Below, in pieces: positions 43,360-48,410 of a stretch of 64,000 bases of DNA (position 1 is the stretch's first letter; each line of letters opens with the position of its first letter). Location of the stretch: positions 96,001 through 160,000 of the forward strand of contig WJMJ01000059.1 of the NCBI GenBank assembly GCA_014728035.1, read 5' to 3'. The position numbers were made by a program, and so were the translations under genes. The notes under the pieces were generated by a model. That model saw only the letters and a list, made by a program, of their open reading frames with translations. It ran no database searches and was not told the DNA's origin. This stretch comes from Promethearchaeota archaeon (GTDB taxonomy: Archaea; Asgardarchaeota; Thorarchaeia; Thorarchaeales; Thorarchaeaceae).

Positions 43360-43562
43360 GTATTCAGGAACGTTATTCTAAAATAGCAAAAATCGGAAAA
43401 TAGGATTGTGAGCGTGCCATTAATATCGATAATGGATATATCCCATTGATGATTATTTATCAAAAATATCCCTCTCTCTCATGGTATCGCTTCACAAATT
43501 TTTTAACTTGATATTCGATACTTGCTAAATGCGCGTTGATAACCTCGTTGGCGGTTTCTAAA

Positions 43563-44963
43563 ATGGTAAGAGAATCTTCTATTGTATATCGAACTGTAAC
43601 GGATGTGCGTGGTCCATTAGTCATTGTAGATAGCACACATAACGTGGCCTATAATGAAGTTGTTAAGATTCGAGCCCCTAATGAGGAACTTCTCACTGGT
43701 ACAGTTTTAGAAACTGGACGCGGCAGAGCAGTTATTCAGGTTTTTGAAGGTACAAGTGGATTAGATACAGACCTTACAGCTGTACGGTTTACTGGGGAAA
43801 CAATGAAACTTCCAGTATCAACAGAAATTCTTGGGCGTATTTTGGATGGCTCTGGGAATCCTTTAGATAAAGGTCCACCCTTAACAGCCGAAGACCACTG
43901 GGATATCTATGGGTCTCCAATAAATCCCTATGCACGACAATATCCTCGACAACCCATTCAAACTGGTTTATCTGTTATTGATGGTTTGAATACTCTGGTG
44001 CGAGGCCAAAAACTACCAATATTCTCTGGATCTGGTCTTCCCCATAACCGAGTTGCAGCTCAAATAGTACGACAAGCAAAGATTCCAGGAGAAGAAGGCG
44101 ATTTTGCTATTGTTTTTGCTGCAATGGGTATAACTGCCACCGAGGCTCAGTATTTTATGGAATCTTTTGAAGAAACTGGTGCACTTGAACACACTGCATT
44201 GTTTCTGAATCTTGCAAATGATCCTGCCATCGAACGGATTATCACACCTCGTGCAGCTTTGACTGCTGCTGAATATCTTGCATATGAATCAGATATGCAC
44301 GTGCTTGTCATTCTGACCGATATGACCAATTATGCAGAGGCACTTCGTGAGATAAGCGCTGCTCGGTCCGAAGTCCCTGGAAGGCGAGGTTATCCTGGCT
44401 ATCTATATACTGACCTGAGTCTTATCTATGAACGGGCTGGCAGAATCAATGGTAGAAAAGGAACCATTACACAGATGCCAATTCTATCTATGCCTCAGGA
44501 TGACATGACCCATCCAATTCCAGACCTTTCTGGATATATCACTGAAGGGCAGATGATTGTGAGTCGACCAATACACCGAAAAGGCATTTATCCTCCAATT
44601 GATCCAGGACCATCTCTAAGCCGACTTATGAAAGAAGGAATTGGTGAGGGTATGACTCGTTTCGATCACAAAGAAATTCAAGCTCAACTATACTATGGCT
44701 ATTCTGAAGGTCGAGACCTTCGAGACCTTGTAGCTGTTGTGGGATCTGAAGCACTAACCGATCGGGATCAAAAATATTTGCGATTTGCAGATCGATTCGA
44801 AAGCGAGTTCATAAACCAGGGCGAATTTGAAGATAGATCATTCGAGACTACTCTTGATATCGGATGGAACCTCCTAAGTGAGTTTCCTGAACGTGAGCTT
44901 AAACGATGTGACCCTTCTACCATACAATGGGCAAAAGAACGTGGTGTCTACAAGATTCTCTAA
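43563..44963 (+). CDS. atpB: A/V-type ATP synthase subunit B
   Basis: [52 protein letters not shown]; start probably 43563. Confidence 0.96.
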
Positions 44964-45484
44964 CCGCTCTGATTAAGTGACTCCTCCAATTTTTGGATGA
45001 AAAACCATCGAGTAGCTTGTGAGTAAGCATACCCATCTAGATTAACTAGATTACCAAAGACCTTTTTCCAAGCTTTCCAGAGAATCAGAAGGTGGTGATG
45101 GGGCAGCATGAAATAACAATTCAATTCATTTAGTCTTTTTAGTGAAAGAAACTGGCCTAGTCTTGCTGTAAATTTATCTGCTTCACCTTCAATTTTCCAT
45201 AGCGCCATAGGTGGATAGTCGTAATGTGGATAATCAAATCTGTCATAGGGAATTATGGTCATTGGTTCTGAGATTATGAGAATCTGCGCTTTTTCCTCAA
45301 ACCTGTGAAACATTTGCTTATGGCTGTGTGATTGCTGTATTGGCTTCTTTTTCGAACATGGGACAAAGAGAATTGGTTTTCCATTTGGTTTCCATGTTTC
45401 AAGAACCGATTGTGTGAATTCAGTTACTTCAGCGTTATCAAATCGATGCGTCACTCTACTAACAACTGATGTTTGAACTCTCAT
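44960..45484 (-). CDS. Stand-alone protein with ArcS (archaeosine synthase)-type motif, DUF5591-like
   Basis: [17 protein letters not shown] matches the ArcS PCx3KPYx2Sx2H motif (Y to I); ISEP...P..YDYPP. Confidence 0.75.
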
Positions 45485-45524
45485 ATCTGTAATTTATGCC
45501 AATGATATCTTATGTATTGTGTGA

Positions 45525-46742
45525 TTAAAATTCACCAAGAGTTGTTTGCTTTACTGGGTCTGGCTCGTCAAGGATTTTTTGAAGTTGCTTATAGAATACC
45601 CACGTATTGTGAAATCCTCTTCTTCGATTTCTATTGTTCCCTCTAAATATAATCACTTCAACTCCCACCCTTTTACAAATAGCACAATCACATAACTCCC
45701 ACGGTCGATCTTTCAATGTCTTTAGATATTCATCAGCATGGCTTTTCTTTGCATCAATAATAGAATCGTACCATAAAATTGCTTCAAGGACTTCATCTAG
45801 GTCTGCCTTGTTCCTTCCATACATTCGCATGAGTCCCATGCAACCTTCTTCCATTGCCTCAAGCTCTTCGAGCTCGATGTTTCCTGTTCCAAGAATTTTT
45901 TTGGCTTTCGGGCTTCTATCACTTTGAGGTATTCGTATGGCGGCATAGTTGTTCCCATCTGGTAGCATGTAATTGCTTCTAGATCCTAACCATGCTCTTC
46001 TCAGGTGTGATGCAGAATCGAATGAGGTTATACCCAATTTTTGCATTTCTCTCATTGCGCTCAATCGAGCAACGCCAAAGAGATGAACACCTACTCTTTC
46101 ATGCTCACTCAGCACTTCGTGTATCGCACGTAGCATGTCTAGAACTGTTGAAGTAGGTGATCTGGTAAGTCCGCCAATAGCAATGTATTGATATCCTATA
46201 TCCAACAATTCCTTGACTGATTCTTTGTAAGATGTTGCATCCCATCCCTGAGCAGCACCTACCGGAACATAATCAAATCCTTTTGAATCATGAACCTGTA
46301 GAAACTTCTCGGCATTTTTTATAGTGATATCATATCGGTTGTGTTTTTGTTCTTCAAATTGCTTAACAATAAGATGGTCAACGCTTACCCCATAATCAAA
46401 ACCTAATTTGTGATAGTATTCTGCAGTTTCCTTGGTTTTATACGGTGGCACATCTTCTTTGATGTATCCATATGCCCCACAATCTCCAAATACAGGTCCA
46501 TCAAATCCCAGATATTCATGTATTCCTACATTCGTTATACGTTTCATGTTTTTCTTGTTTTCTTCAATTTTAGCTTTTGAAACCAGTATGCCATCATATG
46601 GTGGTGAGCTATAAATCTCATGGGCTGTAACCTTGATTCCATCAGTTGGTTCATCTTCGATAAAATCGTAATTCAAATCAACACGATCATCCCACCAAGG
46701 AATATAGTAGTTCATTCTATTAGGAATCCCAAATCTTGACAC
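45525..46742 (-). CDS. dpdA: DpdA-type TGT-fold transglycosylase (7-deazaguanine insertion)
   Basis: DGILVS, FGDCGAY, VSVDHLI, IAIGGL, HLFGV, SFDSAS, Zn site CDCAIC...NRNRRRGFHN. Confidence 0.85.
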   Translation of the reverse strand: MSRFGIPNRMNYYIPWWDDRVDLNYDFIEDEPTDGIKVTAHEIYSSPPYDGILVSKAKIEENKKNMKRITNVGIHEYLGFDGPVFGDCGAYGYIKEDVPPYKTKETAEYYHKLGFDYGVSVDHLIVKQFEEQKHNRYDITIKNAEKFLQVHDSKGFDYVPVGAAQGWDATSYKESVKELLDIGYQYIAIGGLTRSPTSTVLDMLRAIHEVLSEHERVGVHLFGVARLSAMREMQKLGITSFDSASHLRRAWLGSRSNYMLPDGNNYAAIRIPQSDRSPKAKKILGTGNIELEELEAMEEGCMGLMRMYGRNKADLDEVLEAILWYDSIIDAKKSHADEYLKTLKDRPWELCDCAICKRVGVEVIIFRGNNRNRRRGFHNTWVFYKQLQKILDEPDPVKQTTLGEF

Positions 46743-46829
46743 GTATTTCTACACCTTTTTTTGTCCATGAATTATTTAATGAGTAATGTACTTATACTCG
46801 CCAGAAAGTGACCTTAAAAGAGTTCTACA

Positions 46830-47546
46830 TTGTATGTGATTGTTATGGATATTTGTGTTATTGGAAGCTGTGGAAAAAAGAAACAGACATCTAGCCCAGA
46901 AGCTCCTACTTGTAATCAATTACAGTCGAAAGAAGATCTTGCTATTTGGAGAGAAAGACTTCAGGATTTAGTTGTTCCAGCACGTGATATGTACGTTGGT
47001 AATCAAAGCAGAGAACTAGGGAAGGGTGTGGACCTTTTAAGAACAATTGATAATGTTTCAGTTGAGTATTTCATCATTTCCGCAGGATTTGGACTTCTTG
47101 CAGAAAAATCTCTTGTACCACCATATGAATGTAGTTTTTCTACGATGGGGTCAAAGGCAATCAAGAAACGGGCCAGTAATCTATCAATCGATTCAGATTT
47201 CCTATCAATATGTGAAAAGAAGTACGATTTGCTCTATCTCGCGCTTGGTAAGAAGTATCTATATTCCCTAGGGTCTTCTTGGCAATCCGTGTTCGATGGA
47301 ATATTAGTCGCATTTGATTCGAAATTGGACTCTCCAGATGCAATTATTATTCCCGCAGGCAATTCGACTGTTAAAGCATTTTCCCGCCATGGGCACAAGG
47401 TCCATGGAGCCGCTGGATTCAAAGGTGATTTGTTGAGAATTCTTGCTGACTATGCATTGAAGCAAGAAGACAGCTACAATGAAGTTTCCGCTTGGGTTGA
47501 ACCTTTCTACCTAAAGCAGACTATATTCTCTTTTGCTGGTTTATAG
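46830..47546 (+). CDS. YaaA/DUF6884-like (DpdC-related) protein
   Basis: SCGKKK, PARDMYVG, IISAGFGLL, PPYECSF, LGKKY. Confidence 0.75.
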   Translation: MYVIVMDICVIGSCGKKKQTSSPEAPTCNQLQSKEDLAIWRERLQDLVVPARDMYVGNQSRELGKGVDLLRTIDNVSVEYFIISAGFGLLAEKSLVPPYECSFSTMGSKAIKKRASNLSIDSDFLSICEKKYDLLYLALGKKYLYSLGSSWQSVFDGILVAFDSKLDSPDAIIIPAGNSTVKAFSRHGHKVHGAAGFKGDLLRILADYALKQEDSYNEVSAWVEPFYLKQTIFSFAGL

Positions 47547-48410
47547 TTATGAAACTTTGACATTGTGTTTTTGTGAATCTGCAGTTTCTCGAATCCCTGA
47601 GTCACAGTTGTCATAGGATACTTTCGTTTCAATTGAGTATGCTTTAGATTCCTTTCCTATCTTGAATTCTAATAGAATTTCAACCTCATAGGGCTCAAGT
47701 TGTAATGAAGTCTTAAGAAAATCGACAACCAATACCCCTTCTACGACTTTGTACCCTTTTGCTTTTTTCAATTCAATTTCAGGTGTACTTTCAAAGGTTA
47801 CTGATATATTCTGATATGGATGAATGAATCTATTAACAAGCTTACCTGTTACTTGAAGTATTTCATCAGGCTTTAGTTCACCTTTAGAATCAAGGACTAT
47901 CTGTGGAGGCAGTGGTGTTCCCTTTTCCTTCTTTCTACCTCGTCTATATGATCTTGTTGACCTTACATCTTTTGGAAGCTCTTCTTTCCCCTCGTAAAGT
48001 CCTTCTTCGAGTTTCTCGGGTTCTTCATCGAATGTAATTAATGTACTAAATGTAGCTATCTTGACACTATTAATCTTGTTAGATGTGATGCCGGCATCTT
48101 CTTGAGCTTCTCGGATGAGCTCTATCATATAATCGGTACAAACCTTGAGTTTGTACTCTTTTAGCTTCTCGTCTTTTTTCATGATTGATTTATATTTATC
48201 ATGAAACTTCAAAATCTCTCTACCGACAGGTACTTTTTCTTTGTTTTTTTCAAACCATGCTTTTCTTGTAGTTTGTTTGTAACTGAACGGTCCAAATGAT
48301 TTACACGCCTTTGACCAAGCTTCAAGATCAAGTTTTTTGATTTCTGGCATCAGCATGTCTCTGATGTATTTTTTCATTTCTTTAGTCAGAACATCTTTTT
48401 TTGTTGGCAC
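47547..48410 (-). CDS. Hypothetical Lys/Glu-rich protein
   Basis: 287-aa ORF, GTG start; no motif recognised. Confidence 0.7.
   Translation of the reverse strand: MPTKKDVLTKEMKKYIRDMLMPEIKKLDLEAWSKACKSFGPFSYKQTTRKAWFEKNKEKVPVGREILKFHDKYKSIMKKDEKLKEYKLKVCTDYMIELIREAQEDAGITSNKINSVKIATFSTLITFDEEPEKLEEGLYEGKEELPKDVRSTRSYRRGRKKEKGTPLPPQIVLDSKGELKPDEILQVTGKLVNRFIHPYQNISVTFESTPEIELKKAKGYKVVEGVLVVDFLKTSLQLEPYEVEILLEFKIGKESKAYSIETKVSYDNCDSGIRETADSQKHNVKVS

Follow-up and report, generated by a model that had tools for sequence, protein, structure and literature searches.

The window analysed here is a stretch of 64,000 nucleotides of a Promethearchaeota archaeon of the class Thorarchaeia (assembly GCA_014728035.1, contig WJMJ01000059.1, positions 96,001 to 160,000 of the forward strand), and it harbours, beside atpB, four clustered genes, here termed the cassette, whose products may modify DNA with 7-deazaguanines. 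A preliminary description made from the letters alone had proposed three of these genes as a minimal DNA-modification locus; the three open reading frames (ORFs) were confirmed at the positions and on the strands it gave, including the 40-nt gap between dpdA and arcS2. The features of the locus, in window positions, are as follows.

45525..46742, minus strand: dpdA, 405 aa, a DNA-guanine transglycosylase that belongs to the bacterial DpdA family and, within it, to the clade associated with DUF6884
44960..45484, minus strand: arcS2, 174 aa, stand-alone ArcS catalytic core (DUF5591)
46830..47546, plus strand: DUF6884/DpdC-like gene, 238 aa, YaaA/DUF328 fold, divergent from dpdA
47547..48410, minus strand: orf287, the fourth cassette gene, 287 aa, no catalytic family
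45528..45548, minus strand: QTTLGEF at the DpdA C-terminus, resembling a PCNA-interacting protein (PIP) box, with Q399, L402 and F405, after a variable linker
46743..46844: short AT-rich spacer from which dpdA and the DUF6884 gene diverge, a putative shared promoter region judging from its sequence
43536..44963, plus strand: atpB (A-type ATP synthase subunit B), a fixed flank in all Thorarchaeia examined and no functional part of the cassette

The end of arcS2 and the stop codon of atpB overlap by 4 nt and, according to the starts of homologues, the ATG at 46845 is a likelier start of the DUF6884 gene than the TTG at 46830.

The 405-aa protein matched the DpdA equivalog NF041059 with 424 bits (cut-off 200) over residues 10–389, the PADLOC DpdA model with 390 bits and the structure of Salmonella DpdA (7UI4) with an E value of 4e-75. 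The model of the archaeal tRNA-guanine transglycosylase (arcTGT), TIGR00432, gave only 52 bits (cut-off 350), bacterial Tgt gave 24 bits, and the PUA domain is absent. Residue mapping on the Salmonella enzyme (PMC10164549) placed D87, D122 and D242 at Asp95, Asp130 and Asp256, and Y91, F222 and W251 at the base-stacking positions Phe99, Leu236 and Phe265; the zinc site (C351/C353/C356/H379) is complete. The motifs announced in the preliminary description for this protein (DCGAY, SVDH, FDSAS, CDCAIC..RGFHN) and for the DUF6884 protein (SCGKKK, ARDMYxG, ISAGFGL, PYE) were found. The nearest named relative, from a Thorarchaeota metagenome-assembled genome, is 83% identical. In a quick tree the protein fell inside the DpdA clade together with Salmonella-type DpdA (SH-aLRT 99), apart from arcTGT and bacterial TGT; all trees were quick trees, the second of which excluded TGT outgroups and long branches. 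Nor is it the only such enzyme of the genome, which has a separate canonical arcTGT (504 bits), ArcS and an adjacent RaSEA, all away from the cassette. Score, conserved residues and tree position thus bear out the earlier assignment to DpdA without PUA, and the 405-aa protein is, judging from homology, a true bacterial-type DpdA and not a tRNA enzyme. A second archaeosine-like pathway, in which the cassette enzymes would act on tRNA or other RNA, might be read from the TGT fold and the ArcS core, both of which are folds of the tRNA pathway, and from Q165, which stands at the position of Salmonella His181 and equals the Gln of tRNA TGTs. We give this reading very little credence, since Gln is found in most of this DpdA clade, the arcTGT score is far below its cut-off, no PUA domain is present, the canonical tRNA enzymes are encoded elsewhere and the clamp motif presented below points to DNA.

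The 174-aa protein, ArcS2, matched PF17884 (DUF5591) with 52.4 bits (cut-off 26) and the ArcS-core structure 2q07 with an E value of 1.4e-7, and it has neither TGT-like nor PUA domains. Its motif reads PC-x3-KP-I-x2-S-x2-H, with C43, K47, P48, S52 and H55 invariant in the Thorarchaeia homologues; of the ArcS motif previously attributed to it, PC-x3-KP, Ser and His stood, and the Tyr did not, Ile or Val being found instead. Matches in the phage collection were restricted to STSV1, 2 and 4, including STSV2_16, which follows STSV2_15. Within Thorarchaeia the stand-alone arcS2 occurs only beside dpdA, and no stand-alone ArcS2 was found in five Heimdall-type dpdA genomes, which have full-length ArcS only. 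As the gene is gained and lost together with dpdA, we infer that ArcS2 would be a dedicated partner of DpdA. In the Vibrio phage nt-1, whose ArcS2 motif is also degenerate with the enzyme still active, ArcS2 with DpdA2 produced 4–7 2'-deoxyarchaeosines (dG+) per million nucleotides, with a fall of the deoxynucleoside of preQ0 (dPreQ0) from 926–1607 to 0–11 (PMC10516641); the lost dPreQ0 could have become an adduct that was not monitored. Canonical ArcS moves lysine even onto the preQ0 nucleoside, preventing back-exchange (PMC11298593). Another stand-alone DUF5591 gene was observed on a hot-spring-type metagenome contig (L173:8001-9757), with a different TGT gene converging on it and helicase and ERCC4 genes close by, apparently an independent pairing of a TGT with ArcS2.

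The 238-aa protein reached 28.5 bits with Pfam DUF6884, below the cut-off of 30, the family being present in close homologues; it matched the PADLOC DpdC model (E 6e-9) and aligned to Enterobacter DpdC with an hhalign probability of 95%. DUF6884 has been named as the DpdC domain (PMC12235509), and 74 near homologues carry it as a fusion with DpdA. A search of PDB sequences with the DUF6884 alignment gave no match, and the top match of the predicted model (pLDDT 95) was YaaA 5caj (Z 10.0, root-mean-square deviation 4.3, 180 aligned residues, Foldseek E 2e-5), the next match having Z 7.7. Cys14 and Lys18 of the N-terminal Cys-x3-Lys are invariant over 23 alignment rows. The protein is thus DUF6884/DpdC-like with a predicted YaaA fold, and the identities proposed earlier for the two tailoring genes, an ArcS core and a DpdC-like protein, were both sustained. 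A common origin of ArcS2 and the DUF6884 protein, which share the Cys-x3-Lys, was considered and set aside (hhalign probability 0.5%; weak fold match to the ArcS core 2q07, Z 6.2). A separate orphan layout was observed in an Asgard genus (g71, g70; L150-L154), with a divergent DpdA and a 150-aa DUF6884 gene and with neither dpdB nor clamp motif.

The gene at 47547-48410 had been counted among ordinary housekeeping neighbours. This did not hold: orf287 tracks the DUF6884 gene almost exactly among Thorarchaeia genomes and, in Heimdall-type genomes, adjoins dpdA or is fused to DUF6884, and for these reasons it is counted as the fourth part of the cassette. Its predicted model (pLDDT 89) consists of a basic helical N-domain and a C-terminal Ig-like beta-sandwich; the latter matched only unrelated Ig-like folds (Z up to 8.8) without a specific match, and the family search gave no catalytic, ATPase, ParB or DpdB family match. 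The helical N-terminal domain was also seen inside a 1460-aa protein of another genome (L197:3146-7528, G077).

A full dpdA was present in 6 of the 87 Thorarchaeia genomes, belonging to four genera, and always in the order orf287, DUF6884 gene, dpdA, arcS2, atpB; this recurrence makes the arrangement more than chance and bears out the synteny expected by the preliminary description. In G018 arcS2-atpB lies at a contig end, in G015 arcS2 is frameshifted, and G075 has a dpdA fragment behind a truncated orf287. Relics were found in G010 and G042. The DUF6884 gene was whole or nearly so in 31 Thorarchaeia genomes, in 25 of which dpdA was not found; in the dpdA-less genomes it directly abuts atpB wherever the contig reaches, with no remnant of dpdA or arcS2. 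Among 400 Asgard genomes, 21 had a DpdA over the cut-off, mostly next to a DUF6884 gene and with no effector genes, and in a quick unrooted tree the DpdAs of Thorarchaeia and of Heimdall-type genomes formed one side of a branch (SH-aLRT 97). This distribution fits an old residence with repeated loss, as far as sequences tell.

All four cassette genes are under purifying selection, dN/dS (ratio of nonsynonymous to synonymous substitution rates) being about 0.04–0.13 between G077 and G078. For dpdA of the present genome (G000) and G026, which are 84% identical, synonymous sites are saturated. In the former pair (loci L073 and L072), dS was 0.48–0.88 across the cassette and atpB, 5–10 times higher than in the radical SAM and glmU-like genes on its flanks (0.08–0.10), which suggests, for this one pair of genomes, exchange of the tract by recombination. 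The frameshift of G015, the fragment of G075, the relics of G010 and G042 and the absence from most of the class might be taken to mean that the cassette no longer functions and is what remains of a lost restriction-modification island; we find this hardly credible, because the four genes are intact here, dN/dS is low and the catalytic residues are invariant.

The preliminary description had noted no dpdB, dpdD-K or restriction module, and the searches agree with it. PF14072, TIGR03187 and a profile of eight DpdB sequences retrieved no dpdB from the whole assembly (4.3 Mb, 97.9% complete, 8.5% contamination), nor was any DndB or DGQHR protein found in it. No dpdD-K gene was found near the locus; Enterobacter queries for DpdD, DpdK, the DpdI position and part of DpdH gave no match and DpdJ matched only unlinked helicases, DpdE, F and G not being among the queries. 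Since dpdB and dpdD-K were searched for and not found, the cassette does not constitute a complete Dpd restriction-modification system and stands outside it. A NurA/HerA pair, which follows the fused dpdA in Desulfosporosinus and Paenibacillus, was rejected as a partner, the homologues here sitting in a nurA-herA-mre11-rad50 operon on contig C44. Two operons of this type were observed in the genome (C44:199513-205998 and C78:1927-8593), and the HerA and NurA of C44 resemble the genes that follow the dpdA fusions.

The C-terminus of DpdA offers a candidate replacement for DpdB. QxxLxxF in the last 12 residues was found in 12 of 17 Thorarchaeia-type DpdAs (17 of 17 when the last residue was relaxed) versus 18 of 3088 ORFs of this genome (0.6%), a background set that we take to include FEN1, PolD, PolB and Dpo4. 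The Q and L of the box are invariant in alignment A4 and the linker is variable. Similar terminal boxes, some with both aromatic residues, occur in Heimdall DpdA homologues, and a haloarchaeal plasmid DpdA ends in QSGLTEY; the PIP-box consensus is Qxxhxxaa (PMC4929162). In a predicted model of the DpdA tail with PCNA of the same genome (C9:126939-127682), the last ten tail residues contacted residues 40–47, 126–128 and 242–248 of PCNA, among others. The model scored 0.72 (best control 0.07), with runs agreeing in at least 78% of the contacts and a partner pLDDT of at least 53; the score mark was reached by 58 of 80 solved pairs versus 2 of 110 mismatched pairs. As the PIP–PCNA pair is a textbook complex, the model is to be read as likeness to solved PIP complexes, not as binding. 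QxxLF, a sequence similar to the beta-clamp motif QL[SD]LF, was found in 40 of the 74 DUF6884–DpdA fusions (the named ones being bacterial), 15 times in the linker, 25 times in the tail and never in both, shuffled sequences giving a mean of 1.2 and a maximum of 6; none of nine canonical DpdAs with an adjacent dpdB had a QxxLF or PIP-type motif, and all these counts overstate the signal, related sequences not being independent. DpdA thus ends in a conserved PIP-like box and bacterial relatives carry a beta-clamp motif, which suggests docking to the sliding clamp in place of DpdB. A literature search on DpdA with the sliding clamp led to a phage-defence review and a mycobacteriophage genome report, neither of which treats the subject in its title or abstract.

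It could be argued that the clamp box only aids targeting within a DNA-marking cassette, and that a helper is still needed, which would be either orf287 or an ATPase of the host acting in trans. DpdB is essential to Salmonella DpdA, and orf287, with its basic helical domain, travels with dpdA in both Thorarchaeia and Heimdall-type genomes. We regard this as rather unlikely: orf287 has no ATPase or ParB family match and is kept, often truncated, where dpdA was lost, and the genome yielded no DpdB, DndB or DGQHR protein. As a DpdB substitute, orf287 was discarded on the missing family match and on the generic Ig-like matches of its C-domain, its N-domain having been barely tested.

With regard to the substrate, the genome-wide checks recovered canonical arcTGT and ArcS but, as with dpdB, neither queC nor queE. 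QueC and QueE are missing from 85–86 of the 87 Thorarchaeia (full-length QueC in two, QueE in one, none with dpdA), and arcTGT is present in 76. The weak QueC and QueE matches are, by our reading, asparagine-synthetase-like, LarE-like and NrdG-like radical SAM proteins, and an MptA/PTPS pair on contig C65 may serve pterin synthesis. As QueC and QueE are missing and arcTGT, ArcS and RaSEA are nevertheless kept, we infer that the host must salvage preQ0; the earlier idea that the cassette draws on preQ0 made by the host for archaeosine was not upheld. The Heimdall-type dpdA carriers do have QueC. An archaeal-type locus in another sequence (L120:337-6658) combines a TGT fragment, dpdA with a PIP-like tail, the DUF6884 gene, folE2, queD, queE and cdc6, with no queC in the stretch, and from its gene content might insert 7-carboxy-7-deazaguanine (CDG).

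The scarcity of preQ0 might also be turned around, with DpdA working backwards as an enzyme of erasure or salvage: it would put guanine in the place of deazaguanines in DNA that is damaged or has entered the cell, and the preQ0 released would go to archaeosine in tRNA. The exchange of guanine is reversible in assays (PMC10164549), repair factors typically carry PIP boxes (PMC4929162) and arcTGT is widespread where QueC and QueE are absent. But dpdA occurs in only about 7 of 87 genomes, so that it cannot be how the class in general obtains preQ0, the base would be locked in place by both tailoring enzymes and the Heimdall-type carriers have QueC; we hold this reading very doubtful.

Taken together, we think it fairly probable that the cassette modifies DNA in the manner of Dpd, as an orphan without restriction genes, in which a clamp-docked DpdA would mark DNA with preQ0 and the nitrile would then be tailored. 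Very probably, DpdA would exchange guanine in DNA for preQ0 by the double-displacement mechanism of TGTs, with preQ0 presumably salvaged rather than made by the host. In place of the DpdB ATPase, the C-terminal PIP box would load DpdA via PCNA, probably where DNA has just been replicated or repaired. Two enzymes would then compete for the nitrile of dPreQ0: ArcS2, whose addition of an amine would yield dG+ or a dPreQ0-lysine adduct, and, possibly at other sites, the DUF6884 protein, whose addition of water would yield the 7-amido-7-deazaguanine deoxynucleoside (dADG). The mark would most likely shield the chromosome from nucleases, or be a self mark remaining after loss of a restriction module. 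This chemistry is a proposal built on what was observed here: which genes are present and which absent, that their active-site residues are intact, that they are syntenic and under purifying selection, and that the motifs are conserved. More tentatively, a branch of DpdA enzymes might use the sliding clamp (PCNA in archaea, the beta clamp in bacteria) instead of DpdB, in Thorarchaeia for a replication-coupled and restriction-independent mark made from salvaged preQ0 and ending as dG+ or as an undescribed dPreQ0-lysine base; this we deem possible, not probable.

Several points weigh against the orphan cassette as proposed. Salmonella DpdA is inactive in vitro without DpdB (PMC10164549), and no DpdB was found in this genome. 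The substrate source is affected by the absence of QueC and QueE and by that of the transporters YhhQ and QueT, which were not found in this genome. In all Thorarchaeia homologues of ArcS2 the motif Tyr is replaced, by Ile and in one of nine by Val. STSV2, with DpdA and ArcS2 in a host without the pathway, carries the CDG deoxynucleoside (dCDG) in its DNA, not dG+ (PMC10516641), and because of this the product cannot be predicted from the genes. The PIP-like box of Thorarchaeia lacks the second aromatic residue, Q, L and the first aromatic being conserved; some DpdAs without a DpdB lack the clamp motif, among them those of Poribacteria and several Asgard orphans; and in Microcoleus a weak clamp motif stands together with a DndB-like neighbour. 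Lastly, the 25 genomes mentioned above have retained the DUF6884 gene without a dpdA, and this gene is not tied only to DpdA.

This last point bears on a divergent, PUA-less TGT encoded on contig C84 (C84:49090-50220 in G000; L003:1204-2334), present in 40 of the 87 Thorarchaeia, which may explain, on the pattern of its occurrence, why DUF6884 outlived dpdA. The cassette might then comprise two overlapping modules, dpdA with arcS2, and orf287 with the DUF6884 gene, the second now mainly serving the C84 TGT in a second or salvage reaction. The DUF6884 gene and the C84 TGT go together (29 of 32 versus 11 of 55 genomes and, in one genus, 18 of 18 versus 4 of 10, kin not being independent), and this TGT keeps the catalytic Asp residues and the zinc site and adjoins dpdA in G100. 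However, it is unlinked in Thorarchaeia, shared ancestry may explain the co-occurrence, and DUF6884 is fused to DpdA itself in the nearest bacterial relatives. We consider the division into two modules quite improbable; it is compatible with the orphan DNA modification cassette.

A mobile element was considered and set aside, given a GC content of 37.9% versus 39.5% for the genome, no integrase or transposase found near the cassette and the same site in several genera. On the assembly it lies on the contig numbered C25 by us. With atpB it is about 46 kb from the atpA block (C25:90312-93258), and elsewhere in Thorarchaeia atpA and two small genes precede atpB; the region is thus rearranged in this genome. 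A scan for sigma-70 promoters stayed at chance level, this model being uninformative for an archaeon. A 9975-aa ORF with a signal-peptide-like start was also observed in the genome (C28:148-30075).

Eukaryotes maintain DNA marks in a PCNA-coupled manner. If the proposal is true, a non-methyl, clamp-coupled DNA mark would exist in a cellular Asgard archaeon, and its PCNA-docked marking enzyme would parallel the eukaryotic situation, homology not being implied. In the literature consulted, 7-deazaguanine DNA marks are those of bacteria and viruses, and none was found for a cellular archaeon. The cassette makes testable how DpdA works without DpdB, the clamp-motif switch being a concrete answer to test, what ArcS2 makes on DNA, be it dG+, a lysine adduct or dCDG as in STSV2, where it is unexplained, and where preQ0 comes from in archaea that lack QueC and QueE and keep the archaeosine enzymes. 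The novelty supposed in the preliminary description does not extend to the parts, since DpdA with ArcS2 is known from nt-1 and STSV2 (PMC10516641) and both DUF6884 as DpdC and restriction-less islands have been described (PMC12235509). Every part has a precedent; what stands as new, no counterpart having been found in the literature consulted, is their combination in a cellular archaeon, with the missing preQ0 synthesis and a clamp motif matched to the domain of life.

Among known systems, the Dpd system of Salmonella Montevideo (7UI4; PMC10164549) shares a DpdA with all active-site and zinc residues and an adjacent DpdC-like DUF6884/DUF328 protein; unlike it, the cassette has no DpdB or DpdD-K, adds ArcS2, orf287 and a PIP-like tail, and sits at a fixed archaeal chromosomal site in a host without QueC and QueE. 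Dpd islands without the restriction operon likewise have modification genes without dpdD-K, but their survey was bacterial and required dpdAB, and its available part mentions neither ArcS2 nor a clamp motif (PMC12235509). The BRC systems also rely on DpdB-less TGTs, but have PglZ/HerA effectors and no DpdC, again with no mention of ArcS2 or a clamp motif in the available part of the source (PMC12839542). The archaeosine pathway of arcTGT, ArcS and RaSEA (PMC11298593) has the TGT fold and the ArcS catalytic core in common with the cassette, which lacks the tRNA-binding C2/PUA domains and coexists with the canonical set elsewhere in the genome. The nearest non-Asgard relatives are the DUF6884–DpdA fusions, such as those of Microcoleus/Allocoleopsis PCC 7113 (WP_015211588; PMC5699537, Fig. 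3), Desulfosporosinus and Paenibacillus, with 47–51% identity, a DUF6884 partner, a clamp motif in about half and often no DpdB nearby. There one protein holds both domains, que genes, helicases or HerA often accompany it, and the motif belongs to the beta-clamp type, whereas here the genes are split, ArcS2 is present, the motif is of the PIP type and effector genes are lacking. The pairs of Vibrio phage nt-1 and Sulfolobus virus STSV2 (PMC10516641, PMC6884629) resemble the cassette in a DUF5591 core beside a DNA transglycosylase without DpdB, STSV2_16 being the best phage match, but belong to other DpdA subfamilies (STSV2_15 gave no match to this DpdA) and have no DUF6884 partner, and the present locus is cellular. 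By analogy with these systems, the cassette would most likely work like the modifying half of Dpd with the ArcS2 step of the viruses added.

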